Below, one piece after another: positions 5,801-49,563 of a DNA stretch of 64,000 bases (positions are counted from its first letter, which is position 1; each line of letters begins with the position of its first letter). Source of the stretch: Corythoichthys intestinalis (lineage: Eukaryota). The notes below the pieces were generated by a model, which ran no database searches, had not been told where the DNA came from, and saw only the letters and a list, made by a program, of their open reading frames with translations. Both the position numbers and the translations under genes were made by a program. The stretch is taken from NCBI RefSeq assembly GCF_030265065.1, contig NC_080406.1, positions 15,785,094-15,849,093 on the forward strand, read 5' to 3'.

Positions 5801-5804
5801 AAGA

Positions 5805-7436
5805 TACAGTGCCTTGCAAAAGTATTCGGCCCCCTTGAATCTTGCAACCTTTTGCCACATTTCAGGCTTCAAACATAAAGATATGAAATTTAATTTTTTT
5901 GTCAAGAATCAACAACAAGTGGGACACAATCGTGAAGTGGAACAACATTTATTGGATAATTTAAACTTTTTTAACAAATAAAAAACTGAAAAGTGGGGCG
6001 TGCAATATTATTCAGCCCCTTTACTTTCAGTGCAGCAAACTCACTCCAGAAGTTCAGTGAGGATCTCTGAATGATCCAGTGTTGTCCTAAATGACCGATG
6101 ACGATAAATAGAATCCACCATTGTGTAATCAAGTCTCCGTATAAATGCACCTTCTCTGTGATAGTCTCAGGGTTCTGTTTAAAGTGCAGAGAGCATTATG
6201 AAAACCAAGGAACACACCAGGCAGGTCCGAGATACTGTTGTGGAGAAGTTTAAAGCCGGATTTGGATACAAAAAGATTTCCCAAGCTTTAAACATCTCAA
6301 GGAGCACTGTGCAAGCCATCATATTGAAATGGAAGGAGCATCAGACCACTGCAAATCTACCAAGACCCGGCCGTCCTTCCAAACTTTCTTCTCAAACAAG
6401 GAGAAAACTGATCAGAGATGCAGCCAAGAGGCCCATGATCACTCTGGATGAACTGCAGAGATCTACAGCTGAGGTGGGAGAGTGTCCATAGGACAACAAT
6501 CAGTCGTACACTGCACAAATCTGGCCTTTATGGAAGAGTGGCAAGAAGAAAGCCATTTCTCAAAGATATCCATAAAAAGTCTCGTTTAAAGTTTGCCACA
6601 AGCCACCTGGGAGACACACCAAACATGTGGAAGAAGGTGCTCTGGTCAGATGAAACCAAAATTGAACTTTTTGGCCACAATGCAAAACGATATGTTTGGC
6701 GTAAAAGCAACACAGCTCATCACCCTGAACACACCATCCCCACTGTCAAACATGGTGGTGGCAGCATCATGGTTTGGGCCTGCTTTTCTTCAGCAGGGAC
6801 AGGGAAGATGATTAAAATTGACGGGAAGATGGATACAGCCAAATACAGGAACATTCTGGAAGAAAACCTGTTGGTATCTGCACAAGACCTGAGACTGGGA
6901 CGGAGATTTATCTTCCAACAGGACAATGACCCAAAACATAAAGCCAAATCTACAATGGAATGCTTCAAAAATAAACGTATCCAAGTGTTAGAATGGCCAA
7001 CTCAAAGTCCAGACCTGAATCCAATCAAGAATCTGTGGAAAGAGCTGAAGACTGCTGTTCACAAACACTCTCCATCCAACCTCACTGAGCTCGAGCTGTT
7101 TTGCAAGGAAGAATTGGCAAGAATGTCAGTCTCTCGATGTGCAAAACTGATAGAAACATACCCCAAGCGACTTGCAGCTGTAATTGGAGCAAAAGGTGGC
7201 GCTACAAAGTATTAACGCAAGGGGGCCGAATAATATTGCACGCCCCACTTTTCAGTTTTTTATTTGTTAAAAAAGTTTAAATTATCCAATAAATTTTGTT
7301 CCACTTCACGATTGTGTCCCACTTGTTGTTGATTCTTGACAAAAAATTAAATTTTTTTATCTTTATGTTTGAAGCCTGAAATGTGGTGAAAGGTTGCAAG
7401 GTTCAAGGGGGCCGAATACTTTTGCAAGGCACTGTA
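5805..7436 (+). mobile_element. Tc1-like transposon family A, copy 2 (full length, transposase frameshifted)
   Basis: TACAGTGCCTTGCAAAAGTATTCGGCCCCCTTGAA terminal repeats at both ends, TA flanks, 1632 bp. Confidence 0.9.
6198..7215 (+). pseudogene. Tc1-A transposase with a 2-bp deletion
   Basis: ORFs 6198-6491 and 6448-7215 together cover the 339-aa protein of copy 3. At about 6480 this copy reads GAGAGTGTCCATAGG where copy 3 has GAGAGTCTGTCCATAGG. Confidence 0.85.
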
Positions 7437-7539
7437 TACAGTATGTGAATATGAAATATTAAAAATGCATTTATTCCGTACGACAGGGCTAAATTACTGA
7501 ATCATGGTCAAAGCTGCCGACTTCTTAAACCTTCCGAAC

Positions 7540-8484
7540 TAGTGATGTGTCGGTCGCGAACGAGCCGGTACAAAGAGCCTACTCTTTGAAGTGAACGATG
7601 AGAGCCGGCACCCTCGCTCGAGAGCCAGCTCGGTCATTTTCCCTTCTATCTATCCATCTATCCATCCATCCATCCATCCGTCCATCCATCTAGGAAAGGA
7701 CAACACACGAACACGGTTTCTAGGCCTTCAAGATGAGCAGAAAACGCAGTAACATTTGGAGACATTCTAATTGGTTAAAGTCACATGACAATAGGGCAGA
7801 GTGCCCTGTCTGTAAACTTAACCCCTTATAGCTTAATGTATCGCATTTGACACACTTAGAATTTCATTAATTTGAGACTCTAATATAGAAATTTGAATTT
7901 TTTTTTTTTTTTTAATTGAAGGATGCAAGTCAACACATGCATCTGCAGGTTCCATGAAAAAAAAAAAAAATCTGAATTTAGCTGAAAGACTGGACAAATA
8001 ATTACTGACAGAAGGAGCCGGATCAGCCCGTCCAAGTTGAAGTATTTAGTTTTCTTGAATGCAAATTTAAAATAAATCAAGAAGTAGCTTATGTTTGTTA
8101 AAATAAAGCAAGGAGTAGCTTATGTTTGTTTTGTTCGCTGTTGCTGTTACAACTCACTATTTTCGTTATGATGCAGCATGTTTGATTGTTGTTGGTTGAA
8201 GTTTGATTTTGTTGCTTGTTTATTGTTTGGAACCTTTTTAATGTTCAATAAAATAAGCAAAAAACCCTTTTCTTTGCTTGATAATTTTTGCTATTTGCAG
8301 TCAGTAGACTGCAATATTTAGTTCACCAAGTCATTTATCGAAATATATGCTAAATTTGTCATAAATATTTAAAAGAAAAGCTAAAGTTAAAAGAGCTGTA
8401 TGAGAGCCAAAAAGAGCCGACTCTTTTCACTGAGCCGATCCAAATGAACCGGATCACCGAAAAGAGCCGAAAATCCCATCACTA
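7540..8484. mobile_element. hAT-type non-autonomous element (TAGTG-TIR family), copy A
   Basis: Ends TAGTGATGTGTCGGTCGCGAACGAGCCGG … ATCCCATCACTA. It is flanked by the 8-bp duplication TTCCGAAC / TTCCGAAT. The ends match those of the element at 45555-48736. The interior holds a (CCAT)n tract and a short tandem duplication. Confidence 0.6.
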
Positions 8485-13612: not shown

Positions 13613-14902
13613 AAGTTTCACATTTCTTGTCTGGAAGTATAGGCCCGATAAGTTTTGAATCATCAGATTGGCCTGTTTCATTTGATTAATAATTGAGTGT
13701 GCCTTGACACAAAGCAAAGCCCACTATCAGTTCAGAGTCCTTTTCTCTAGATTGGTGACTCACATAACAGGCTTGGCCGCTATGGCCTTTGTACTAAGCC
13801 ACACCTGCAACATCATTTCCCTGTGAAAGGTCCTTTTCTCTTGCTTGTCAATGCAGCCATGGCCACACCATATCCGTACTTAAAACCTTTTCTCCTACAT
13901 TCTTGTGCGCTTATTCACTGGTGCTTTCAGTCTTATTACTTTCCCCTAGTAGTGTTCTCTGCCTCCAGCCCTCATGCTCACCCACCTGTGTCTTATCGCC
14001 TCCCATCACTACAAAGTCTTTTCACTTGCTTTCTCTACTTCTGCGTACTCTCTTTTTGGCTCATTTGTTCTTCTGCCTGGTTCTCGCATGCTTGCTCGCC
14101 AGCTTTTTTTTTCTCTTCCAAGTTGATGTTTGAGAAAACTTTGTCAGTTTCATTGCCAACAAACTCTCACACACACTTAGACAAGGTGTGACTCAACACT
14201 GTAAAGTTTTGCTTTCATGGGCAATTGTTATTTTTATTCAACTTTTTCCTTGGCCCTCAGTATTGCCCGTGAATGACGCATGCTCTGCTCAAACAGTTTA
14301 AATTTCATTGGTTTTAATCGATTTAAAAGCGCAAAGGAGTTTTACACCAACAATGGAAAGGGGGGGGAATCTAATGTTAAGAGACAAATGTTAAAGTAGT
14401 GTTTCTTCACAATATAAGTCGTATTATGGATCCCAAGACATTCAATTGAGCAAAAGTATTGATGGGAATTTTTTTTAATCATTTAGAATGTTTACATTTA
14501 ACATTCATTCTTTATTTTAGTTATATGACAACATTAAAAAAATGTTCTCTTCATACACTTACATGAGTAAAAACACTGTTTTCCCAAAATTAAAACTAGT
14601 AATATGATTATATACAGTAAATATATACAGTGGGGCAAATAAGTATTTAGTCAACCACTAATTGTGCAAGTTCTCCTACTTGAAAATATTAGACAGGCCT
14701 GTAATTGTCAACATGGGTAAACCTCAACCATGAGAGACAGAATGTGGGGGAGGGGGATTGAAAACTGAAAATTACATTGTTTGATTTTATAAAGAATTTA
14801 TTTGCAAATCATGGTGGAAAATAAGTATTTGGTCGATACCAAAAGTTCATCTCAAGACTTTGTTATGTATCCTTTGTTGGCAATAACGGAGGCCAAACGT
14901 TT

Positions 14903-17320: not shown

Positions 17321-18380
17321 ACCATTTTGGTTGAGGTTTACCCATGTTGACAATTACAGGCCTCTCTAATCTTTTCAAGAAGGAGAACTTGCACAATTGG
17401 TGGTTGACTATATACTTATTTGCCCCACTGTATGTTGTTGTTACGGTGACTTTGAGCTTGCCTCATTAGGAGTCACCACAGTGAGGACCTCGCAATTTGA
17501 TGGCACAGGTTTTACATTGCAAGTCCTTCCTGATACAACAGACTCATTCTGTGGGTCTAGCTACCTTATCTGCTCCAGGAATGCCATTATTGATACATCA
17601 AGGGCATTCATAGTGGCCTTATAAAAGAACAACCACTTGGTCTGTGTAATAGGCTGACAACACCACCAGAGCAAACTTCAAACTGAAGGAGACTTGCCAA
17701 AGTGAAATGGGAGAAGTGATGAGGAGAGCAAGCCCGAGGTCAGCACCAGTGGCCTATAAGATTTTTATTTTAAATGCCCGAGGCGACGACATCGGCTTTG
17801 GAAGCCCCCAAAGGTGATCTGGAGGAGAGGGAAGATTGCAAATCTATGGAGGTATGCTGATGGAGTGTACATATAGAAAGACGATAAGTCTGAGAACATC
17901 GACCAGTTTCACGTCATCATGCTCAGCATGGAGAGAAAACTTCTTTTCAGAAAAAATCTACTGTAGGTTGTGGAAATTAATCCACATGGACTCACCTCAT
18001 GATGTCTGATAAAATGCTTCTCGGTGCATCGAAGTATTACAGCGATTGAGTTTAACCTAACCAAGTCACTACAAAAAAATCTTAACTTCATAATTCTCAC
18101 ACGTTACTGTCACAAAAAAAGTTATAAAAGAAATACCAGACGGATTTTCATTTTACTCTAGGCAACACAGTACAGCTTGCTTCTGCAGAGTAAAGAAACA
18201 GACAAGGTTTATGAACTTCTTGGACACTTTGAGCATTTTTATATTTGCTGTCAAGCTGCTTTCAGTGCTTTAAAGTTTGTGTAAAAATAAAAAGAAAACA
18301 TTTGAATGTTTCAAATGACCCTGTCATAAGACTTAGAATAATGACCTGTCACGTCAATGCATGCTTATGATAGATATTAT

Positions 18381-29823: not shown

Positions 29824-32513
29824 AGAAAAATAGGTAACACTTTATAATAATAACTATCCGTTTAACCATTAGTAAACTGTTGATAAATGATTTATTGTTG
29901 ATTTGTGAAGTTACCAAAATAGGTAACACTTTATAATAACTATCCGTTTTACCATTAGTGAACTGTTGATAAATGATTTATTGTTGATTTGCGAAGCATT
30001 TGTTAACAGTTTGTTAAGCATTTACAGGGTGTTCTTAACCTGAAACACAGTTTGTGTAGAAACGTTTCAAGTTTTTGTGTGTAACGTTTGGCATTTCTAT
30101 CTTTTCAGGTTAAGAAATGCCGTTCACTTCAAAAGAAAAGGCATTTTGATAAGGCATTTTGCAGGCAGCGCTCATGTTGCACATTTATGAAAATCTGCCA
30201 TAGAACCAACAAATAATTGTACTTTTCTTTGTATATTTAACCAATAAAACTTATGACCTTCAACATAAAGTGTATATAGTTTTATTAAGATCCATCAACT
30301 TATGGAGTTACAGGAGTGCCAAAATTAAAAATAAATAAATAAATGAATAAATAAATAAATGAATGAATAAATAAATAAATAAATATAAAGAGAAATAAAT
30401 ATATAAATGAATGAATAGGTAAATAAATGAACGAATAAATAAATATAAAGAGAAATAAATATATAATTAAATAAAAATATAACGGTATACTTTGTCATTG
30501 ACATTTACTTTTGATCATTAACAACCACAAACGGAAAAAACAATGACAATTTTATTTTTTGCCTTTGCCTTTTCTGTTTGGCTTTTACATTGTCATTGTC
30601 ATTTGTCAATCGCCTTTCCTCTTTGGGAATGTAAATGGCAAATGCGCAGAGAAACGGTCTGTCAATCAAATGACGTTGGTAGGGGCTTTCCAACCAGGAA
30701 TAGTAGTCGATAACTGATTATTTCTAGTTTAACTTTCCGCACATGCGCCGTACGGCTAACCAAGCGCGACCACGGCTGTTTTGTGTGACTGCACTACGCC
30801 ACTTCCTCCAATCGGTCTTTGTCAGTCACGTGCCCAAACTAGCGGACGCGCCCCCATGCGCCATTTTGAGTGTACCACGGATGTAAACAAACCAGAACAG
30901 AAGTAGCTCCAACGCCACATTACTGCCTCCAACTTCATCGCTGGATATAAAAAACTCCCTCTTTTACAGTATCAGCGCTTAAATTTTAAAAACTATAAAT
31001 CTCTCGAAGCTCACGGACATTTAACAAATGGCTCGGTGCAGGATCTCCGCATTTCGACCGCAGGACTGCGACAACACAGTCGTCACTCTCGTTGCTCCTC
31101 TCAGAAACATGATCCAGCTCTTACTTGAACATTGTTGAACTTGAATTGTACCTTGATTATCATCTTAAACATCGCATGACTAAAACAGGTGAAGGAACTG
31201 TCAAAATTACATGCAAATTCATGTATATTGCACAATATATTGTTTCAGTGTTGACATTGCCATGCAAAGATGTGCAATTCTCTCCATGCAGGACTTATCA
31301 TGTGAAGTGGGACAAATTTACTTGAACACGTTATTCTACAACTAGTAATATTTATTTTACTTCATATGCACGTTTTATATTTCCTTGTATTGCCATTTTC
31401 TGTTTACCATTGTGCGGCTGCTGTTTTGAATGAGAATTTTAGTAAAAATTATATATCTAAAAAAGTAAAACTGTCAAACTTCTCGTTTTGTTTGCAAACA
31501 TCATACTTCCTATTCAGTGTTTATCTCCCAAAAAATGTTTGAATGTAATTGGTAAAAAAAAATTTTTTTTAAAAAGTACTTTCCATGATCAAAACTAACA
31601 CTAGTTCTTTATGTATGTTCGTCATGATTATAAACACGAAGATTCAGACATAGAAAATAATTATTCTTTGAATGGTCTGGCATGTGTGTCGAATAATATA
31701 TTTTATAATATATTTTTTTACCGGTCTAGAAAAATGTATTTCTATCGTTTAATCTATCACGTAAAAAGTCTATCCATATCCATATCTATCCAGTCTATCC
31801 TATCCATAAAAACCGCACGTGCAACTCGATAACCGACATCACTTTCCTTCAGGTAAACTAGGAATAATCCGTTGTCGACTACTATTCCTGGTTGGAAAGC
31901 CCCGCCTAACGTCATTTGATTGACAGACCGTTTCTCTGCGCATTTGCCATTTACATTCCCGAAGAGGAAAGGCGATCGACAAATGACAATGACAATGTAA
32001 AAGCCAAACAGAAAAGGCAAAGGCAAAAAATACAATTGTCATTGTTTTTTCCATTTGTGGTGTTCAATGACAGAAAGTAAAAGTCAATGAAAAATGTTGT
32101 CATTGTTTTTTCCGTTTGTGGTTGTTAATGACCAAAAGTTAATGTCAATGACAAAGTATAACGTTATATTTTTATTTATTTATTTATTTATATATTTATT
32201 TCCCTTTATATTTATTTATTCGTTCATTTATTTACCTATTCATTTATTTATTTATATATTTATTTCTCTTTATATTTATTTATTTATTCATTCATTTATC
32301 GATTTATTCATTTATTTATTTGTGACTCCATACAACTAGCATGGGCATTTAGAATGGGGTCAATCATATTGGAATACCCTGTAAATGCTTAACAAACTGT
32401 TAACAAATACTTCACAAATCAACAATAAATCATTTATCAACAGTTTACTAATGATCTATTAACTAGTAAAGCGGATAGTTATTATAAAGTGTTACCGAAA
32501 AATAACAATTATA
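29824..32513. mobile_element. Foldback-like element with ~700-900-bp inverted arms
   Basis: 29824-30720 is the reverse complement of 31850-32513. The match includes a tandemly duplicated ~85-bp subterminal unit and an (AAATAAATG)n-like tract. About 1.1 kb of central sequence is unique. Confidence 0.55.
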
Positions 32514-33293: not shown

Positions 33294-36200
33294 CTAACTA
33301 TAAGCTTTGTCGAATAGGAACGTTTTTAATCTAATCTTAAATGTGCAAACTGTCTCGGCTTCTTTAATACTAGCTGGAAGCTGATTCCATAAAACAGGGG
33401 CTTGGTGGCTAAAGGCTCTAGCTCCGACAGTACTTTTATGAACCCTGGGAACTACCAGTAGACCTGCATTCTGAGATCGGAGTGTTCTGTTGGGGCGGTA
33501 TGGAACCAGAGCATCGGTGAGATAAGATGGCCCCAACCCATTAATGGTCTTAAATGTAAGAAGGAGTATTTTAAATTTAATTCTAAACTCGACTGGAAGC
33601 CAGTGAAGTGCCTGGAGCACAGGGGTGATGTGCTCTCTTCTATTGGTTCCTGTTAAAAGTCTTGCTGCTGCGTTTTGGACTAGCTGAAGACCTTTTAGAG
33701 AGCTTTTAGGACAAGCTGCAAGTAGGGAGTTACAGTAATCCAATCTCGATGTAACGAACGCGTGAATTAATTTTTCTGCATCGCTTTTAGATAAAATGTT
33801 TCTAATTTTGGCGATGTTGCGCAGGTGAAAGAAAGCCGTTCTACAGGTTTGTTTAATGTGTGCTTTAAACGATAAGTCAGGGTCAAATAAAATTCCTAGG
33901 TTTTTAACTGTGGCGCTGGAGGCTACACTTACATTGTCCAGAGTGACTATCTGGGCAGATAAAGAGTCTCTAACACTTTTCGAGCCTATTATAAGGACTT
34001 CTGTCTTTTCAGGGTTAAGTAGAAGATAGTTAGTGCTCATCCAGGTATTTATATCTCGGACGCAGGCGCTTAGTTTTTCTACTTGCCTGACCTGCTCAGG
34101 TTTAATTGATAAATACAGTTGTGTGTCGTCAGCGTAACAATGAAAGTTAATGCTATGTTTTCTGATGATGTTACCTAGAGGAAGCATATACAGCGTAAAC
34201 AAGATGGGCCCGAGGACAGATCCTTGCGGCACACCATAACTAACTCTAGAGTACGATGATGATTGCTGGTTTACATTGACAAACTGGTACCTATTAGATA
34301 AATATGATTTAAACCAGCAGAGGGCTGCTCCTCTAATGCCTATGTCACATTCTAATCTCTGCAATAAGATATTATGGTCGATTGTGTCAAAGGCTGCGCT
34401 CAGGTCCAGCAGAACCAGGATCGAGACTAATCCAACGTCAGCGGCAAGTAACAAGTCATTAGTTACTTTAACTAATGCGGTTTCAGTGCTATGATGAGCT
34501 CGAAAGCCAGACTGGAACTGTTCAAATAAACTATTGTCCTGTAGGTGCTGACAGAGCTGTTTAATTACCACTCTTTCAAGGACTTTGGAGAGAAATGGTA
34601 AGTTAGAAATAGGTCTATAATTGGCCAGAATATCAGGATCAAGAGTAGGTTTTTTCAAGAGCGGTTTAATAACTGCATATTTAAAGGACTGCGGCACGTA
34701 GCCAGTAACTAATGAGGTATTTATTATATTTAAGATAGTGTCAAGGAGGCACGTTGATGGTTTGGAGGACATTATAATTGAAGTTACATCAATTTGGTCT
34801 ACAGTGGTAAAGTTATTTAATATTTTAGAGGGGTTTATAGGAGATTCCGAATTCTTTGTCTGCACTTTATCAGACCTAATAATTGGAAGTGATTCATTTA
34901 TTTTATTTCTAATAGTTGCGATTTTATTGTTAAAAAATTTTAGGAAGTCATCACAGCTAAGGGTGGTTGGGATATAAGGTTCTATTGAGGTGTGACTGTT
35001 TGTCAGCCTTGCTACAGTGCTGAACAGAAACCTAGGATTATTTTTGTTTTCCTCTATTAAGGATGAGTAATATCTGGTTTTAGCCGTGCGCAAGGCCTGC
35101 TTATATGTCACTAAGCTGTGTTTCCAAGCAGAGAGGGTGTGCTCTGTGTTGGAACGGCGCCAAAGTCTTTCTAATTTACGTGTCGATTGTTTAAGAGAGC
35201 GTGTTTCAGCATTATACCAGGGAGATGCTCGTCTCGGCTTGACAAACTTTAATTTGGAGGGAGCGACGACATCTAGGGTGGTACGAAACGTAAACAGAAC
35301 ACGATCAACAAACTCGTCATTAACAGCAAGGCCGGACATCACTCCTTCATAATTAGATGACATGGAGGCAAATATAGGCTGAATTATCTGTTTATACTCT
35401 GAAACAGAGTGATCACCTAATGTCCTTTTCATCTGAGTTCTAATCACTGGTGGTGGATTATCTTGAAGCACAAACCGAAAGGTAATTAGAAAATGATCAG
35501 ACAGTACAGGGTTGTGGGGATGGACACTAAGATCACTAATCTCAGTACCGTAGGTTAAAATCAAGTCCAGGGTGTGCTTGTGACTATGAGTTGGTTTATT
35601 TACATTTTGAATGAAGCCAGTCCCATCTAGTAGGTCATTAAAGGCCTTACCAAGGGAGTCACCTTCATCGTCAACATGTATATTAAAATCCCCTACAATT
35701 ATAATTCTATCCCAGCTTAGCAAAATACTAGATAAAAAGTCAGAGAAATCTAACAAAAACTGTGAGTAGGGACCAGGGGGACGGTAAACCACTATGAACA
35801 GAACTGGTTTTTGGTTCTTCCAGTTAGCGTCTATAATTGATAGTGCTAGACTTTCAAAGGAGTTATAAATGTAATTAGCTTTACTTTTTGGGCTCATACC
35901 TAAACAAGAGTGTGATATTACTGCCACCCCCCCTCCACGGCCCGTGCTTCTAGCTGTGTGAAAATTCACGTGACTTGGGGGTGTGGATTCATTAAGTCTA
36001 ACAAAGTCATCCTGCTGAAGCCAAGTTTCAGTCAGGGCCAAAATATGAATATTGTAATCCCCAATTAAGTCATTAACTAACAGAGATTTGGGCGAGATTG
36101 ACCTGATGTTTAATAATCCGCATCTTATATATTTATTAAGAGCTAATTTATTTTCACTGCTATTAGGGGCTATATGTATTAAATTCTTTGGTCTCGTTCC

Positions 36201-36362
36201 TATAGTACTCGGTTTTCCCCTGTTCACTATACGAGGCACGGACACGGTCTCTATCTTCTGTCCTGAATTTTGGATTTGTGACAGCTCGGAAAGAGGCGAG
36301 TGGTCACTACTAACAGTGTTATGTTTTACACTACAACACTGCGCCCGGGCCCCCACTCTCAA
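33294..36362 (-). CDS. L2 ORF2: apurinic endonuclease plus reverse transcriptase (1022 aa)
   Basis: APE motifs [24 protein letters not shown] motifs [48 protein letters not shown]. The C-terminal block reads [13 protein letters not shown]…LHWLPV. Confidence 0.9.
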
Positions 36363-36365
36363 GTG

Positions 36366-37244
36366 TCACTTTGGGAGACTTAGTTTGGCGGCCAAATTTC
36401 GAGTTAAGAGAGCAGCACCGTCCCAAGTCGGATGAATGCCGTCTCGGCGCATGAGCCCGGGCTTGCCCCAAAACGCGTGCCAGTTATCAACAAAGACTAT
36501 ATCGTTTTCTGGGCACCATCTAGACAACCAGCGGTTAAATGATGAGAATCTAGAGTACATCTCATCATTGACCAAATTAGGCAGAGGACCAGAGAAAACT
36601 ACGGTGTCCGCCATCGACTTAGCAAGTTCACACACCGAGGCTACGTTTAATTTAAGCACCTCAGACTGTCTCCGCCGGGCGTCGTTACCGCCTGCGTGAA
36701 TCACGATACGGCGGAACCTCTTCCTACTCTGCTTTAAGAGTCTGAGGTTTCCTTCGATGTCACCGACTCTGGCCCCTGGGTAGCACCTGACAGACACCGC
36801 CGGGTGCTTCACGTCTCTAACTATGGAGCTTCCAATTACGAGAGTGTCTGGTTCAGCCGGTGTGTCGCTGAGGGGGGCAAACCTATTGCTGACGTGAAGC
36901 TGCTGGTGCACTAAGGTTGTGCGTTTACCACTGCGCTTCCCCCGTACAGTCACAAATCCCTCCTTAATTTCCCCCGGCTGCACGGGGCTCGCTGGGGGGC
37001 TAACTGCGCTAGCAATCCTACTACTGCAAGCACGACCTGCCACTACCTGGCTATAGCTAGGACTAGCTTTCGTCTCTAGAGTGCAGAGCCGTGCTTCTAG
37101 CTCAGAAACCCTGGTCTCCAACCCTGAGACTAAGCTACACTTCCTACAGCTACTACTGTCCTCGACGAAGGAGCCAGGGTGCTCGCTATACATACAGCAC
37201 ACTGAGCAGAAAAGACGGGAGGACGAAGGCAGAGGGCTAGCCAT
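36366..37244 (-). CDS. L2 ORF1: Cys-rich N-terminus plus SGNH-type esterase domain (292 aa)
   Basis: Motifs LVIGSSIVRDV (nucleophile block), IHAGGNDA (GxND block) and RDGIHPTWDG (DxxH block). It ends in a TGA that is in the same frame as ORF2. Confidence 0.85.
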   Translation of the reverse strand: MASPLPSSSRLFCSVCCMYSEHPGSFVEDSSSCRKCSLVSGLETRVSELEARLCTLETKASPSYSQVVAGRACSSRIASAVSPPASPVQPGEIKEGFVTVRGKRSGKRTTLVHQQLHVSNRFAPLSDTPAEPDTLVIGSSIVRDVKHPAVSVRCYPGARVGDIEGNLRLLKQSRKRFRRIVIHAGGNDARRRQSEVLKLNVASVCELAKSMADTVVFSGPLPNLVNDEMYSRFSSFNRWLSRWCPENDIVFVDNWHAFWGKPGLMRRDGIHPTWDGAALLTRNLAAKLSLPK

Positions 37245-41673: not shown

Positions 41674-43606
41674 AGTAGTGAGCACACAAGCACACTTTGT
41701 GCTTGTGGGATCTCTATTTATTATGTGACTTGTTCAACACTGCTTTTGGACTATAAAACAACTGCAAGAGACAAAAACTGCCACCTAAAAAAGTGCAAGA
41801 GACATGTCCCTGGCATTCTACGCTGTAAATTATGTCTATGCGGCTGGCTCAAACTCGTCAATGAAAAGATTCATTCATATTGGATCCGTAAGGGGAGTTT
41901 GACTTTTTGGGGGCACAAAATGTTGATGACCCCGAAACGCTGTGTCAGCAATAAAATTAACTTACAAGAATATTTATAATTATAAGTTGAAAATGAGCGA
42001 TTTTTTGTTTCACATCATTTTTGAGGGGAATTCTAAACTAGGCTGCTTAGGACAGCGATAATTTTCGCCAAGGTCGCCATCCATTGAATATGGTACGCCC
42101 GCATGTGGTGGCTCTGTTGTATAATTAGTGTATTTAATGGGGCAAATTGAAACTCAGCTCTCTGGCGTTTCATGGTCCACATTTTCAATCATTGGTTCTT
42201 GCTCAGTAGATATTGTCACTTTTGAAAGCTTAGGTTTGAAAAAATTACGTATATCCATCTTGCCTCTTAGGTCCTCAGGTGGTTTTGGCTAACCAGAGTA
42301 AATGACCGTCTCAGGTGCTAGTCACATGATATGTTGAAAAATAATTTAGACCCATTATAAAAATGTTTTTAAAAAAGTCAATTCAATTCATTTTTGTTTT
42401 TTTGTTTTATTGCTTTTTACAACTTTTATAGACAATATTTTACCGGAAAACTCTTAATTTTAAAATCATACATAGGAAAGTTATTTACATGCAATGGCAA
42501 TTTTCTGCCACCAGGGGGGCGCCCCCCCCCCTTAAACTCCAGGTATGGTTGGATTCTTTCCACATTTTTTCTAAAAATCACCAAACTTGACAAGCTCACC
42601 AAATTCAACATAAAAAACACAATTTGGCAGCCTAAGAAAAACGTACTAACTCTATAACGCATGTACTCATTGGATACTTGACTAAACTCCATTAAGAAGT
42701 TCATTTGCAAACTGAATAATACTCACTTTTGATTAATAGTGTCAGAGAGCTATGGATTGAATGTTAAATCCTCAAGTACTAAAGTGGGTCTATCGATCGG
42801 CGAGTTAGCGACCTTGACTTTTCTGATCATGCCCTGATTTTTGCAGTCAATTGATGTCCTTGTTGAATCAGAGTGTCTTTGACTGTGTGTCCTGGCTAAA
42901 TACCACAATTCCGCCATTTAGTGACTGTCTGGATGCTGTTCCCAACACTGGTGGTGGAAATTTTCCACTTTGTTAGAATAATAAATATTAAATATTAAGC
43001 ATGTTCATAATTTACATTCAACACTGAAATTGGCTGCTGCAACCCAGTCACTCGGTTCGGTTTGAAAGGCAAATGTGAATAAATGCCTGTATGTTTGATA
43101 ATGGCTCTGGAATAGAGAGAGTCACTCGGTTCAGTTTGAAAGGCAAATGTGAATAAATGCCTGTATGTTTGATAATGGCTGTGGAATAGAGAGCGTATTG
43201 ACTTGACCTTTGGTACCAAGTCCCTGAGGAAAATCATCAGATAACAATGTGTGTTTCGTGAGACATACGTATGATCTAACAGGCGTATGACCGTATACTA
43301 GTTATGTCGAAGAGAAAAAAAATGTTGAATTGGACTTCATATGATCGGCGTATAGTGCCTATGCCCATGATTGCAAAGGTGACGATAAAAAAAAAGACTT
43401 AAACAAGATTAGACCAGAGGTACGTAGAGTAGCCAAAGGTTTTACTCAACAAAGAGCGTTCCTTCTAAATAATATTAGACAAGTAAAAGTAGTCATCCAA
43501 AAATTTACTCAAGTACAAGTAAAATAGTATTAGTTGAAACGAATACTCAAGTAATGCGTAACATTGTGAGTAGCTGCTAACAATGTCTGATTTTAATGGT
43601 ATAATA

Positions 43607-43608
<2 letters not shown>

Positions 43609-43659
<51 letters not shown>
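43609..43659. repeat. (TA)n microsatellite, target of the Tc1-A copy 3 insertion
   Basis: (TA)n runs directly into TACAGTG. A matching (TA)n tract lies at 45290-45327 on the other side. Confidence 0.9.
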
Positions 43660-43662
<3 letters not shown>

Positions 43663-45286
43663 TGCCTTGCAAAAGTATTCGGCCCCCTTGAACCTTGCAA
43701 CCTTTCGCCACATTTCAGGCTTCAAACATAAAGATATAAAATTTTAATTTTTTGTCAAGAATCAACAACAAGTGGGACACAATCGTGAAGTGGAACAAAA
43801 TTTATTGGATAATTTAAACTTTTTTAACAAATAAAAAACTGAAAAGTGGGGCGTGCAATATTATTCGGCCCCCTTGCGTTAATACTTTGTAGCGCCACCT
43901 TTTGCTCCAATTACAGCTGCAAGTCGCTTGGGGTATGTTTCTATCAGTTTTGCACATCGAGAGACTGACATTCTTGCCCATTCTTCCTTGCAAAACAGCT
44001 CGAGCTCAGTGAGTTTGGATGGAGAGTGTTTGTGAACAGCAGTCTTCAGCTCTTTCCACAGATTCTCGATTGGATTCAGGTCTGGACTTTGACTTGGCCA
44101 TTCTAACACCTGGATACGTTTATTTTTGAACCATTCCATTGTAGATTTGGCTTTATGTTTTGGATCATTGTCCTGTTGGAAGATAAATCTCCATCCCAGT
44201 CTCAGGTCTTGTGCAGATACCAACAGGTTTTCTTCCAGAATGTTCCTGTATTTGGCTGCATCCATCTTCCCTTCAATTTTAACCATCTTCCCTGTCCCTG
44301 CTGAAGAAAAGCAGGCCCAAACCATGATGCCGCCACCACCATGTTTGACAGTGGGGATGGTGTGTTCAGGGTGATGAGCTGTGTTGCTTTTACGCCAAAC
44401 ATATCGTTTTGCATTGTGGCCAAAAAGTTCAATTTTGGTTTCATCTGACCAGAGCACCTCCTTCCACATGTTTGGTGTGTCTCCCAGGTGGCTTGTGGCA
44501 AACTTTAAACGAGACTTTTTATGGATATCTTTGAGAAATGGCTTTCTTCTTGCCACTCTTCCATAAAGGCCAGATTTGTGCAGTGTACGACTGATTGTTG
44601 TCCTATGGACAGACTCTCCCACCTCTGCTGTAGATCTCTGCAGTTCATCCAGAGTGATCATGGGCCTCTTGGCTGCATCTCTGATCAGTTTTCTCCTTGT
44701 TTGAGAAGAAAGTTTGGAAGGACGGCCGGGTCTTGGTAGATTTGCAGTGGTCTGATGCTCCTTCCATTTCAATATGATGGCTTGCACAGTGCTCCTTGAG
44801 ATGTTTAAAGCTTGGGAAATCTTTTTGTATCCAAATCCGGCTTTAAACTTCTCCACAACAGTATCTCGGACCTGCCTGGTGTGTTCCTTGGTTTTCATAA
44901 TGCTCTCTGCACTTTAAACAGAACCCTGAGACTATCACAGAGCAGGTGCATTTATACGGAGACTTGATTACACACAGTTGGATTCTATTTATCATTATCG
45001 GTCATTTAGGACAACATTGGATCATTCAGAGATCCTCACTGAACTTCTGGAGTGAGTTTGCTGCACTGAAAGTAAAGGGGCCGAATAATATTGCACACCC
45101 CACTTTTCAGTTTTTTATTTGTTAAAAAAGTTTAAATTATCCAATAAATGTTGTTCCACTTCACGATTGTATCCCACTTGTTGTTGATTCTTGACAAAAA
45201 AATTAAATTTTATATCTTCATGTTTGAAGCCTGAAATGTGGCGAAAGGTTGCAAGATTCAAGGGGGCTGAATACTTTTGCAAGGCA

Positions 45287-45291
<5 letters not shown>
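43658..45291 (-). mobile_element. Tc1-like transposon family A, copy 3: structurally intact, candidate autonomous element
   Basis: Both terminal repeats are intact, TA flanks are present, and the transposase ORF is uninterrupted. Confidence 0.9.
43879..44898 (-). CDS. Tc1/mariner DD34E transposase, 339 aa, intact
   Basis: MKTKEHTRQVRDTVVEKFKAGFGYKKISQALNISRSTVQAII… forms the paired-like HTH region. The catalytic triad is in place: [21 protein letters not shown] and [16 protein letters not shown]. The protein ends AAVIGAKGGATKY. There are no internal stops. Confidence 0.9.
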   Translation of the reverse strand: MKTKEHTRQVRDTVVEKFKAGFGYKKISQALNISRSTVQAIILKWKEHQTTANLPRPGRPSKLSSQTRRKLIRDAAKRPMITLDELQRSTAEVGESVHRTTISRTLHKSGLYGRVARRKPFLKDIHKKSRLKFATSHLGDTPNMWKEVLWSDETKIELFGHNAKRYVWRKSNTAHHPEHTIPTVKHGGGGIMVWACFSSAGTGKMVKIEGKMDAAKYRNILEENLLVSAQDLRLGWRFIFQQDNDPKHKAKSTMEWFKNKRIQVLEWPSQSPDLNPIENLWKELKTAVHKHSPSKLTELELFCKEEWARMSVSRCAKLIETYPKRLAAVIGAKGGATKY

Positions 45292-45331
<40 letters not shown>

Positions 45332-45554
45332 CATACTCACGGTACACCATGCTAGTAACGGGTTGGACCCTGTTTTTCCTTCAGAACTGCCTCAATTCTT
45401 CGTGGCATAGATTCAACAAGGTGCTGGAAGCATTCCTCAGAGAGTTTGGTCCATATTGACATGATGGCATCACACAGTTGGTGCAGATTTGTCGGCTGCA
45501 CGTCCATGATGCGAATCTCCCGTTCCACCACATCCCAAAGATGCTCTATTGGAT

Positions 45555-48500
45555 TAGTGTTGTATCAGTCGCGAACGATTCGCTCTTTTTGAACGAATTG
45601 TTTGGGTGAACGAGACCGAACTAATCACCATCTGTACTGATTCGTTCTATGAAGTTGGGGCTTGTTTAGCTGCGTGGGAGGGCGTTGAGCAAGCGGCAGC
45701 GTCTTCTGACATCGCACACGACCAATCGGACGCCAGCCTCATCGCGGGCAGGGGTGGGAGCGGAAACAGAATCAGGGCGTCTGTCACTCACTTTCACGTG
45801 TGGCCAATAGGCAGCCAGCGTGTAGGCAGGGGGGCAAGACTGAGTTATGTCACTTCCCGTTCAGTGACTCGGTCCTCCGGTTCCTGACCTAGCTTGCTGC
45901 TAACTTGACTTTCCAGTAATGCAGTGAACGAGTCAAAAAATGAAAGGAATTGACTTTGTCACATATCTGTTAATGTGGAGCCTATCATATGCTGCTCAAA
46001 CAGACAAAAACACCACACAAACCTAGCGAGCATGGTTTAGTGTACTACTTTTCTCAACAGACTTGCGACTACCCATGACGACATGCTATCAAATTTTACA
46101 GTAGTTTAAAACACGGGTAGCTACGAGGCAAGCAAAAGCTGAGCTGCGGTCGCGTGACGGCAGTGAAGGGGGCAGAGAACTGTCACTATATGGAGGCTTC
46201 ATGGCAGCGATATTTACCTCATATGTGCACAGAAAAAAAGAATATTTCGTATGACCACCATAATACTGATTTGCAATGAAACTGTATATACATGTCAATT
46301 TTTTCCGAGTGTTTTTTTTTTCGTGTCAGAGCGTGGCGGGTGTTGGTTGATTTGACAAATTATGTCCATCTGTCCATCATGTGCTACTCAAGCGCCCAAA
46401 AACAACGCACGCGGACACGGGAGACGTCGCAATATGCCTACATTTTTCTTAACAGACTAATGAGAGTAGAAAGGCGACATCGTGAAGAGCAAACAATTAT
46501 TTCTCGTCAGCATTTGGCGATCTGAAATGAGAGGACAACAGGGGAGCTGACCGGGTTATTTTATTTGTTAATACCAGTGCAAAAATACAATACGATCATC
46601 TTAATACTGATTTGCAATTAAACTGTCAAATATCAAAATGTAGTATTGTTTTCATTTCAGAGCAGCACATTTGACAACTAGCTATTTACACTTTAGTTTT
46701 AACAATAGTGACCAAAAATAATAGTGATGAGCATAAAAACAAAAATACAACAGAGCGAGAGGTAAATATGATGTGTTGGTCGTTCCATATTTAGAAATTA
46801 AACTTTCGATTTATTTTTATTTTCGCGACAGCAAGCATGCCACGTTGGCTGGTAGCAGCAGCATTGTATATGTTATCAAGATCATGCTAAAGAAAGTCCG
46901 CGCGCCCCTGACCCCAAACCCCCACTTCCCCCACAAAAGGAAAATGTTTAACTGTGTCCTAAATCGAAATGCAAGCACGAGCCATGACTTTGATCCCAAA
47001 GAAATAGGACAGACGACGCGGAAGTTCTCCCTCGCTTTTGCAGCAGCGGGAGGGAGACGAGTACGGTGGCCGAGAGGTGTCAGGCGAAATGCAAAGTCCA
47101 AACACTTTGCAAATAGAAAAAAGCACGAACCCAAATTGCAAACGCTTTGCAAAAGAAAAAAGCACGAATGCAAACTGCCACAACACGATCCCCAATTCCT
47201 AAAGCGCGATTGCAAATTGGCAAAAGCACGAACCCCAACTGCAACAACACGACAGCAAATGGCTCGTAGCACGAATGCAAATTGTCACAAAGCGATCCCC
47301 AATTCCTAAAGCGCGATTGCAAATTGGCAAAAGCACGAATCCCAAGTGCCACAACACGACAGCAAATAGTTCGTAGCACAACAGCAAACGGCTCACAGCA
47401 CAGCAGCAAAATCACGCAACACAACGGCAAGAGGATGACCCGGAAGTTAAAAAAAAAAAAAGAAAAAAAAAGGACGACACTTTATACACTTTAAATGTGC
47501 TTTGTGACCATCTATACGGACCTCCATGAAGTTGCCCCCACCCCGCAAATTTATATAAAAATGATGTTAATCGTTTGTGCTGCAACGGTTTTGTAGCTCC
47601 CGCGGCAGCGTACCAACTCTCTCAATAACAGAGGAGTGTCATAATAACTAGCACGATCATAACACAAATTCGGGTCCATTTTGCAGTAAATTGGGGGCTT
47701 GAGATACTAATTTCGAGTGCTGACATCCCTCTAAGCCCCCTCATTTACAGCAAAATGGTGCTAGCTAGTTTTTAGGACACCCCTCTGTTATTGAGAGAGT
47801 TGGTACGCTCCATTAGCCACGGGAGCTAAACTGAGGAAAAGCTACGAGGGACGTCACCACTCGAAATTAATATTTCTATAAAAGCATAATACTGTATCAA
47901 CAAAACCGTTGCAGCACAAACGATTGACATCATTTTTATGTAAATTTGCGTCTGATGGGGGAGCAACTTCATAGAAGTCCGTATAGATGGTCACAAAGCA
48001 CATATAAAGTGTATATAGTGTCGTCTTTTTTTTTTTTTTTCCACTTCCGGGTCATCCTTTTGCCGTTGTGTTGCGTGATTTTGCTGCTGTGCTGTGAGCC
48101 GTTTGCGGTTGTGCTACGAGCTATTTTCTGTCGTGTTGTGGCATTTGGGATTCGTGCTTTTGCCAATTTGCAATCGCACTTTAGGAATTGGGGATCGTGT
48201 TGTGACAACTTGCATTCATGCTACGAGCCATTTGCTGTCGTGTTGTGGCAATTGGGGTTCGTGCTTTTGCCAATTTGTCATCGCGCTTTAGGAATTGGGG
48301 ATCGTGTTGTGGCAGTTTGCATTCATGCTTTTTTCTTTTGCAAAGCGTTTGCAATTTGGGTTCGTGCTTTTTTTCTATTTGCAAAGTGTTTGGACTTTGC
48401 ATTTCGCCTGACACCTCTCGGCCACCGTAGACGAGGCTGTGAAAGCAGAATGATATCGCCTGTCACTCATTTACGACAAGCAGCCAATGAGGAGCCTGTG

Positions 48501-48736
48501 TGCAAGAGAGAGGGAGGGACCAAGCAATGTCACTTCCCGTTCAGTTATACTGCGAAGCGGTCTTTGGTGATTCGTTCGGCAACGTCACTTCCCGTTCACT
48601 AACCGCACGATTCATTTGGTCAGGGAGGGAGATGAGGGGGGCGAACGATTCGTTGAACGATTTGTTTGAACGAGTCTTTTTACTGAACGAACTGAAATGG
48701 ATTCTTTCCTCAAGTGAACGACAGATCCCGTCACTA
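45555..48736. mobile_element. hAT-type non-autonomous element (TAGTG-TIR family), copy B, palindromic interior
   Basis: TIR TAGTGTTGTATCAGTCGCGAACGA … CGACAGATCCCGTCACTA. The 8-bp TSD TATTGGAT sits at 45547-45554 and 48737-48744. Subterminal repeats are GAACGA and GTCACTTCCCGTTCA. Internal ~400-bp inverted arms (about 47070-47460 and 47990-48420) are built from ~90-bp tandem units. Confidence 0.7.
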
Positions 48737-49563
48737 TATTGGATTGATATCTGGTGACTGTGGAGGCCATTTGAGTACAGTGAACTCATTGTCATGTTCA
48801 AGAAACCAGTCTGAGATTATTCCAGCTTTATGACATGGTGCATTATCCTGCTGAAAGTAGCCATCAGAAGTTGGGTACATTGTGGTCATAAAGGGATGGA
48901 CATGGTCAGCAACAATACTCAGGTAGGCTGTGGCGTTCCAACGATGCTCAATTGGTACCAAGGGGCCCATAGAGTGCCAAGAAAATATTCCCCACACCAT
49001 TACACCGCCACCACCAGCCCGAACCGTTGATACAAGGCAGGTTGTTGACACCAAATTCTGACCCTACCATCCGAATGTCGCAGCAGAAATCAAGACTCAT
49101 CAGACCAGGCAACGTTTTTCCAATCTTCTATTGTCCAATTTCGATGAGCTTGCGCAAATTGTAGCCTCAGTTTCCTGTTCTTAGCTGAAAGGAGTGGCAC
49201 CCGGCGTGGTCTTCTGCTGCTGTTGCCCATCTGCCTCAAAGTTCGACGTACTGTGCATTCAGAGATGCTCTTCTGCCTACCTTGGTTGTAACGGGTGGTT
49301 ATTTGAGTCACTGTTGCCTTTCTATCAGCTCGAACCAGTCTGGCCATTCTCCTCTGACCTCTGGCATCAACAAGGCATTTCCGCCCACAGAACTGCCACT
49401 CACTGGATATTTTTTCTTTTTCGGACCATTCTCTGTAAACCCTAGAGATGATTGTGCGTGAAAATCCCAGTAGATCAGCAGTTTCTGAAATACTCAGACC
49501 AGCCCTTCTGGCACCAACAACTATGCCACGTTCAAAGTCACTCAAATCACCTTTCTTCCCCAT
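48734..49563 (-). pseudogene. Tc1-C transposase, frameshifted
   Basis: The N-terminal ORF reads MGKKGDLSDFERGIVVGARRAGLSISETADLLGFSRTIISRVYREW…WSDES. A second frame reads …VMVWGIFSWH…FQQDNAPCHKA…WPPQSPDINPI. Confidence 0.8.

Follow-up and report, generated by a model that had tools for sequence, protein, structure and literature searches.

The stretch of DNA analysed here, 64,000 nucleotides of contig NC_080406.1 (hereafter the window, with positions counted from its first letter), carries on the + strand at 45555-48736 a composite insertion that interrupts the transposase gene of a Tc1-family element. The insertion consists of what is probably a non-autonomous hAT-type transposon, of a large near-palindrome situated within it, and of one copy of a 6-bp repeat that would be the palindrome's own duplication. 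In other words, two, and probably three, successive insertions can be read at this locus, each with a target duplication. The surroundings are repeat-rich: several Tc1 copies, which are the dominant kind of repeat, a CR1/L2-type long interspersed nuclear element (LINE) and another element with long terminal inverted repeats (TIRs) are found in the same window, a context that speaks for an origin from a genome like that of a ray-finned fish.

Results

The outer element occupies exactly 45555-48736 (3,182 bp), starting with TAGTGTTGTATCAGTCGCGAACGA at 45555 and ending with CCCGTCACTA at 48736. It is flanked by a perfect 8-bp target-site duplication (TSD), TATTGGAT, whose left copy at 45547-45554 is identical to the right copy at 48737-48744 in 8 of 8 positions. 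Namely, on one side the sequence runs from GATGCTC through TATTGGAT into TAGTGTTGTATCAGTCGCGAACGA, and on the other from CAGATCCCGTCACTA through TATTGGAT into TGATATC. The coordinates, the TAGTG ends and the duplication that an initial annotation of this DNA had assigned to the element all proved exact. The TIR consists of TAGTGTTG at the 5' end (45555-45562, + strand; family consensus TAGTGATG) and of CGTCACTA at the 3' end (48729-48736, + strand; reverse complement TAGTGACG), and in this copy the two agree perfectly over 5 bp only (TAGTG...CACTA), plus position 8. Once the nested palindrome and one copy of its 6-bp duplication are subtracted, 1,808 bp remain as the sequence of the hAT-type element itself.

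The host of this insertion is a transposase pseudogene of the Tc1 family on the minus strand, the N-terminal and central part of which lies at 48745-49563 and the C-terminal part at 45352-45546. The protein starts with MGKKGDLS at 49563 and runs, past an in-frame stop after WSDES (49092-49090) and a frame break near 49040, up to the insertion, beyond which it continues as EHLWDVVE...GPTRY and meets a further stop. If 45555-48744 is removed, the minus-strand reading frame is restored, including the catalytic-domain motif SPD(L/I)NPIEHLW. In the rebuilt protein, Pfam matches HTH_Tnp_Tc3_2 on the N-terminal half (1.4e-18) and DDE_3 at residues 64-113 of the C-terminal half (2e-11), with the healed junction at residues 99-102 falling inside the latter match. 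Despite its stops and frame break, the reconstruction therefore has the combination of helix-turn-helix (HTH) domains and DDE_3 by which a Tc1-type transposase is recognized. Taken together, the restored frame, the duplication and a DDE_3 match that extends across the healed junction show a precise insertion with duplication of the target site, and the Tc1 copy was already a dead pseudogene when the outer element inserted. The initial annotation was right in seeing a Tc1 transposase interrupted here; the peptide LIGS, at which it had placed the interruption, is not found at the junction.

At its 3' end, the dead Tc1 copy borders directly on a complete Sleeping-Beauty/Tc1-like element (43605-45344), and with this adjoining element the nest has a further layer. 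The TIRs of the neighbour are 276 nt long (94% identity), and its intact 339-amino-acid transposase open reading frame (ORF; 43879-44898, minus strand) shares 90-92% identity with Tc1 proteins of salmonids and gar. The terminal repeat of this neighbour includes a (TA)23 microsatellite at 45290-45335, which is the source of spurious, sub-threshold microRNA matches in Rfam.

Both ends of the outer element are rich in short repeats. In particular, 9 of the 12 occurrences of GAACGA on the + strand of the whole window fall inside it, with three in the first 60 bp from the 5' tip and five in the last 95 bp before the 3' tip. The 5' cluster (45570-45614, + strand) includes, at a distance of 16-28 nt from the tip, the quasi-palindrome GCGAACGATTCGC, and the 3' cluster (48641-48722, + strand) is oriented as at the 5' end, the TGAACGA repeats sharing one orientation at both ends. 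The core GAACG is present 13 times in the terminal 0.7 kb, as opposed to 0.86 times per kb window-wide, which amounts to an approximately 20-fold enrichment. A second repeat, GTCACTTCCCGTTCA, has three copies, all of them in the outer element and none elsewhere in the window, where the chance expectation is 0; its reverse complement contains TGAACGG, an inverted form of the TGAACG subterminal repeat. It is carried on both sides of the outer element by a direct repeat of approximately 100 bp. The left copy of this repeat (45764-45865, + strand) contains a CCAAT-like motif in addition to GTCACTTCCCGTTCA and is 70% identical to the right copy at 48443-48545, which, together with the third GTCACTTCCCGTTCA at 48584, makes up a + strand segment at 48443-48598. 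An exact-pattern scan of IMG/VR gave no match to GTCACTTCCCGTTCA. By these window-wide counts, GAACGA and the second repeat, both of which the initial annotation had pointed out, are real features of the element.

A similar terminus is found at 7540-8484 on the + strand, in a related and probably also hAT-type element of 945 bp. It has the form TAGTGATG...CATCACTA and is flanked by a TSD that matches in 7 of 8 positions (TTCCGAAC/TTCCGAAT). This copy had been described as a smaller sister of the main element without the palindrome, a description that does not survive comparison, as only the termini are common to the two. Namely, the only stretches that can be aligned are approximately 60 bp long at the 5' end and approximately 80 bp long at the 3' end, and blastn (E<=1e-3) reports no similarity between them. 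What is more, the subterminal repeat, TGAACG(A/G) in the main element, has diverged to (A)GAGCC(G) in the 945-bp copy, where it occurs nine times, always on the + strand, and where it takes the place of GAACGA at the 3' end as well as at some positions of the 5' end. Judging from this comparison, 7540-8484 is a related family or subfamily and not the main element minus its palindrome. A Tc1-like copy at 5804-7437 (TIRs of 224 nt, 94% identity; a 255-amino-acid transposase ORF fragment at 6448-7215) lies approximately 100 bp upstream of the 945-bp element. Within the latter, at 7733-7867, an ATG-initiated frame reads MSRKRSNIWRH...CPVC...(stop)...HLTHLEFH, with the spacing C..C...H....H reminiscent of a BED zinc finger; as a transposase remnant this peptide was dropped, having neither a Pfam zf-BED match nor a homologue in the protein database.

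The terminus pattern TAGTGNTGTNTCNGTCGCGAACGA matches the 7540 copy and, in addition, two eukaryotic contigs of one Joint Genome Institute (JGI) metagenome, Ga0308020_1012586 (352-375) and Ga0308020_1051982 (950-973), which have the same terminus, TAGTGATGTGTCGGTCGCGAACGAGCCG. The TIR consensus across these three is TAGTGATG, and the start of the family at the 5' end can be written as TAGTG(A/T)TGT.TC.GTCGCGAACGA. Similarity among the copies of the terminus starts exactly at TAGTG, at the very first base of the outer element, and extends for approximately 80 nt. Since the terminus recurs in a second copy in the window and in two contigs, the tip belongs to a dispersed repeat family, which by the same matches is present in at least one other sampled genome. 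No match to the hAT tip pattern was found in GTDB or IMG/VR. The first of the two contigs, Ga0308020_1012586, also contains segments that resemble spliced exons.

The palindrome itself, at 47062-48429, is 1,368 bp long and aligns end to end with its own reverse complement, so that the inverted symmetry claimed for this region is real over its full length. A gapped self-alignment pairs approximately 625 positions at 94% identity. Identity is highest at the outside: it reaches 100% in the outermost tips (55-61 nt), 95% in the next block inward (338-348 nt) and 92-94% in the inner blocks, which have various lengths. The arm length of approximately 400 bp given in the initial annotation holds for the well-matched outer arms (approximately 410 bp) and falls short of the full inverted symmetry, which extends over approximately 640-700 bp per side. 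If, on the strength of self-alignment and folding, this near-palindrome is read as a nested foldback-type element, it would be composed of a left long TIR (47062-47594, + strand), which begins with the tip TACGGTGGCCGAGAGGTGTCAGGCGA, of a middle domain of 305 bp (47595-47899) with short inverted repeats of its own, and of a right long TIR (47900-48429, minus strand), as delimited by the inverted-repeat and self-alignment analyses. In the left TIR, tandem repeats take up 47092-47410 and an A-rich tract 47448-47470. Each arm contains tandem repeats of 107 bp (two copies), 40-41 bp (two copies) and 22 bp (approximately 2.8 copies), the 107-bp units lying at 47161-47379 on the + strand in the left arm and, as a mirror image, at 48112-48329. 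The tandem units of approximately 90 bp reported earlier do not agree with these measurements; the motif quoted for them is itself present.

The centre of the palindrome is asymmetric. A loop of approximately 25 nt (47705-47729) is accompanied on the left by a bulge of 23 nt (47653-47675) and, on the right only, by a segment of 72 nt (47828-47899), which includes an inverted copy of the loop sequence, and the arms also differ in poly(A)/poly(T) length. As single-stranded DNA, the palindrome is predicted to fold into one long hairpin of approximately 650 bp (minimum free energy, -695.6 kcal/mol). Its coding content is limited to spurious ORFs, the longest of which (47946-48602, in the right arm, 218 amino acids) has no homologues among 5.8 billion proteins. 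Rfam and ARAGORN detect no tRNA or other RNA family in the element; the only Rfam matches are spurious microRNA hits at the (TA)n repeat and at the central hairpin, far under the gathering scores.

On both flanks, the hexamer GACGAG adjoins the palindrome immediately beyond its last complementary pair, at 47056-47061 on the left and at 48430-48435 on the right, as a putative TSD of 6 bp, or as AGACGAG if the palindrome's last base is included. We estimate the chance of such a 6/6 direct match at fixed positions at approximately 2.4e-4. Read across the insertion, the uninterrupted hAT site would be GGGAGACGAGGCTGTG. The palindrome and the rest of the hAT element share no sequence.

The tips of the palindrome read TACG-GTGGCCGAGAGGTGTCAGGCGA, with the terminal letters TACGGTGGCC. 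Together with the flanking GACGAG (47056-47100 and 48391-48435), they align with the 5' half of tRNA-Ser(GCT), that is, with its acceptor and D-arm including the A box. This 5' half is GACGAGGTGGCCGAGTGGTTAAGGCGA, and GACGAG equals its nt 1-6. The alignment scores 20.5, in comparison with 7.7 +/- 1.4 for shuffled sequences, none of 1000 of which reaches this value; tRNA-Ser(AGA) and tRNA-Leu likewise outscore almost all shuffles. The Rfam tRNA model and ARAGORN report no tRNA at the tips. Given that an A-rich tract closes the outer 410 nt or so of each arm, the arms may derive from a tRNA-related unit that resembles a short interspersed nuclear element (SINE).

A second long-TIR, foldback-like element lies at 29953-32453 in the window. 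Its terminal arms are 82 nt long (95% identity) and its inner arms 261 nt (90%), there are (AAATAAATGAATG)-like tandem arrays in both arms, and its termini, GGTAACACTTTATAATAAC, as well as the rest of it, have no sequence kinship to 47062-48429.

Discussion

What kind of transposon is the outer element? Its structure suggests, with a probability that we consider high, that it is a non-autonomous member of the hAT superfamily. In general, hAT elements make 8-bp TSDs and have TIRs of 5-27 bp with YARNG termini (PMC3517528, PMC3014272). Here, we find a perfect 8-bp TSD, a short TIR that starts with the YARNG-type pentamer TAGTG, a size below 4 kb and clusters of dense subterminal repeats that are asymmetric between the two ends, all in an element without coding capacity, and it is this combination that leads us to the hAT-type reading. 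The same traits characterize non-autonomous hAT elements such as maize Ds, the Drosophila Mar and hobo-related MITEs (transposable elements of miniature size with inverted repeats), and the hAT-N elements of fish and lizards; as in Ds, the copies of the family here share their ends only, the interiors being unrelated. The BED domains of Hermes bind to subterminal repeats that are asymmetric, among them a quasi-palindrome that occupies positions 11-27 of its left end (LE11-27) (PMC10368747); the place of GCGAACGATTCGC, at 16-28 nt from the tip, may be compared with this. The hAT hallmarks listed in the initial annotation are, on these structural grounds, well founded, and they support a cut-and-paste element of non-autonomous type. 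We also compared the insertion sites with two hAT target preferences, nTnnnnAn, which is of the Ac/Hermes type (PMC10368747), and nnnTAnnn, which is of the Buster type. Among only four sites (TATTGGAT, TTCCGAAC, ATATGAGT and TTATGAAA), T is found at position 2 in three and A at position 7 in three; the Buster-type pattern fits none of the four, a number that is too small to count.

It should be noted that 8-bp duplications are also made by other superfamilies, such as P, Merlin and Mutator-like elements, and that several observations weigh against hAT membership and in favour of an origin of the 3.2-kb element in one of these. Namely, Pfam finds no domain in the six frames of the outer element, no hAT transposase remnant was found, the BED-like peptide of the 7540 copy has no homologue, and no autonomous partner was found in scans of the metagenome, GTDB and IMG/VR, collections that hold almost no fish DNA. 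In these respects, in its subterminal repeat TGAACG(A/G) and in a TIR that is perfect over 5 bp only in this copy, the element is unlike Ds and its counterparts. What is more, one paper also assigns YARNG as the motif at the termini to P-superfamily elements, along with TSDs of 7-8 bp (PMC2820524). That said, the standard diagnosis of hAT combines an 8-bp TSD with short TIRs and a YARNG terminus, to which TAGTG conforms (PMC3014272, PMC3517528), the bases at positions 2 and 7 are, in three of the four targets each, in line with nTnnnnAn (PMC10368747), and the dense, asymmetric subterminal repeats are like those of Ac and Hermes. We therefore regard an origin outside hAT as unlikely.

The palindrome had initially been taken for an inverted duplication of the hAT element's own interior. 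Its exact bounding by GACGAG and its foldback anatomy argue otherwise: it is probably a separate foldback transposon nested in the hAT-type element, an internal duplication of the latter being less likely. We base this reading on the palindrome's own GACGAG repeat, on long TIRs with internal tandem repeats, on tips that are its best-conserved part and on the absence of similarity to the remainder of the hAT element. Foldback (FB), Tetris and the 'two-TIR' copies of Galileo have long TIRs in which tandem repeats are embedded, short noncoding middles and TSDs (PMC3573991, PMC4079207). Likewise, the palindrome has two inverted repeats of approximately 530 bp (approximately 94-95% identical) that account for most of its length, with internal tandem repeats, a short noncoding middle and a flanking duplication. 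It is unlike these insect elements in its fish-like host, in its tips, which resemble a class-II tRNA 5' half, in the absence of any sequence relationship and in being known from one copy. A number of points speak against a separate transposon. Its duplication is 6 bp (possibly 7), as compared with 9 bp in FB, 7 bp in Galileo and 8-10 bp in Tetris, and the argument for its mobility draws on one 6-bp flanking repeat in one copy. A second copy was found neither in the window nor among predicted proteins nor in the metagenome and GTDB collections, which contain almost no fish DNA. Finally, the homology of the 100-bp repeat does not continue significantly across the insertion site, with 79 of 1000 shuffles reaching the score. 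A search of the literature for the terminal sequences found nothing.

The lack of an independent copy and of significant host homology across the insertion site would fit a palindrome that is intrinsic to the hAT element, having arisen as an inverted duplication by aberrant transposition, hairpin-mediated repair or template switching at replication, with GACGAG as a coincidence or a microhomology left by repair. In addition, hairpins are intermediates of hAT excision, and the interiors of Ds and other non-autonomous hAT elements are very heterogeneous and rearranged (PMC3260210). However, the borders of the palindrome coincide exactly with a direct repeat whose chance probability is given above, a microhomology normally survives at a repair junction as a single copy and not as two flanking ones, no sequence is held in common with the rest of the element, and the outermost 55-61 nt are the best conserved, as expected of the ends of a transposon. 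An intrinsic origin is, in our opinion, a serious possibility, albeit one that we consider less probable than not by some distance. Palindromic artefacts are known in long-read assemblies, and the structure could in principle have come from a mis-join or from a chimeric long read in which an adapter was missed. Yet the arms are 94% and not 100% identical, the 72-nt one-sided segment, the 23-nt bulge and the difference in poly(A)/poly(T) length set them further apart, the palindrome is not located at a sequence end, and the ends, the TSD and the host reading frame of the enclosing element are all coherent, which makes an artefact barely credible. Hardly more probable is a Tc1/mariner-type MITE inserted at TA, with the ends CGGTGG...CCACCG, a TA duplication and a pre-existing GACGAG on either side. 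Tc1-family elements dominate the window, the palindrome has TA at its start and at its end, and TACGGTG differs by one mismatch from TACAGTG, the common Tc1 tip; however, such an insertion would need GACGAG-TA-GACGAG as a chance target (approximately 2.4e-4), and the palindrome shows no similarity to any Tc1 copy in the window. A Transib-like identity, for which the tip ACGGTGG could be set beside the heptamer CACGGTG, is disfavoured by a TSD of 6 bp and not 5.

The tRNA-like tips call for a comparison with Dada elements, which are linked to tRNA genes in ray-finned fish, make TSDs of 6-7 bp and are documented to have inserted off-target into a non-autonomous hAT element (hAT-N) (PMC8869645). 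The GACGAG (or AGACGAG) of the palindrome is within this range of TSD lengths. However, Dada elements are approximately 7-8 kb long and coding, with short termini, whereas the palindrome has 1,368 bp, is noncoding and ends in the unrelated TACGGTGGCC. We have rejected membership in Dada: GACGAG is not one of the 12 canonical Dada TSDs (Table S1, PMC8869645), the target lies inside a hAT element and not in a tRNA, snRNA or 5S gene, the published termini (e.g. GGCCAGCCGTATATACC and TACCTGACAACCAC) are unrelated, and coding capacity is missing. In the published Dada consensus set (Dataset S1), the 10-12-mers of the palindrome tips are found at no terminus. A bolder proposal would be that the palindrome represents an undescribed fish foldback family whose TIRs begin with a class-II tRNA 5' half (GTGGCCGAGAGGT..AGGCGA, with A box and D-arm) and whose target GACGAG equals nt 1-6 of tRNA-Ser(GCT). 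This would point to a DNA transposon that, like Dada but with other ends and another target, mimics or prefers tRNA-Ser genes and that has landed off-target in a hAT element here; we consider this quite improbable. If the tRNA-like tips and the GACGAG target were a property of a family, fish would have, next to Dada, a second type of DNA transposon associated with tRNA genes.

Returning to the nested foldback transposon, we think it reasonably likely that the whole locus is a three-layer nest of a Tc1, a hAT-type and a foldback element in the repeat-rich genome of what looks like a ray-finned fish. Its history could have been the following. The lowest layer would be a minus-strand Tc1-family copy, of which the transposase remnant at 49563-45352 is left and which, with an in-frame stop, a break in the frame and then another stop, would already have been dead. 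Into the N-P-I codons of SPD(L/I)NPIEHLW, a noncoding hAT-type element of approximately 1.8 kb would then have been cut and pasted in trans, a staggered 8-bp cut at integration giving rise to the duplication of TATTGGAT. By analogy with Hermes and Ac, the transposase may have recognized the element by its tips, TAGTG(A/T)TG, and by its subterminal repeats, TGAACG(A/G). As the last step, the 1,368-bp foldback-type element would have entered the hAT element at GACGAG, duplicating these 6 bp. Since it encodes nothing, the foldback element must, in this scheme, have been moved in trans by a transposase from elsewhere. All in all, this is an ordinary, well-preserved transposon nest, made of known kinds of element and not of a new kind of system. 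Nested fossils of DNA transposons are routine in teleost genomes, and the value of the locus is that of a clean example of insertion order, which annotators should split into three elements instead of recording one 'palindromic hAT'.

A present-day function is not seen in any of the three layers, and nothing points to a function for the host. What could matter is the foldback structure, as a quasi-palindrome of 1.4 kb is of the kind that short-read assembly can collapse and that can stall replication or, if transcribed, give hairpin RNA. The initial annotation expected a long hairpin to be extruded; this agrees with the fold predicted for single-stranded DNA, and it agrees less well with the asymmetric centre, which would disfavour extrusion from duplex DNA (PMC10164571). 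In particular, in a yeast model with Alu inverted repeats (Alu-IR), arms within a certain range of identity still support fold-back in single-stranded DNA, while the extrusion of a cruciform from duplex DNA is strongly suppressed by mismatches close to the centre and by spacers of more than approximately 20 bp (PMC10164571). In comparison with that model, the arms of the palindrome are far longer than those that are already unstable in yeast and their identity (approximately 94%) is in the fold-back range, but the centre is imperfect, with a loop of approximately 25 nt, bulges and 305 nt between the well-matched arms, so that cruciform extrusion in duplex DNA would, by the yeast model, be greatly reduced. 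It is plausible that the hairpin, formed on single-stranded DNA, makes this a possible site of replication trouble or recombination.

Other repeats in the window

Two further features were noted outside the locus. An apparently intact CR1/L2-type LINE is located at 33294-37244 on the minus strand; its ORF2 (1,022 amino acids) has endonuclease and reverse-transcriptase domains, and its ORF1 (292 amino acids) a GDSL lipase/esterase domain. At 14625-14730 and 17328-17433, there is a pair of 106-nt inverted repeats (95% identity), 2.6 kb apart, which are probably the ends of another TIR transposon.

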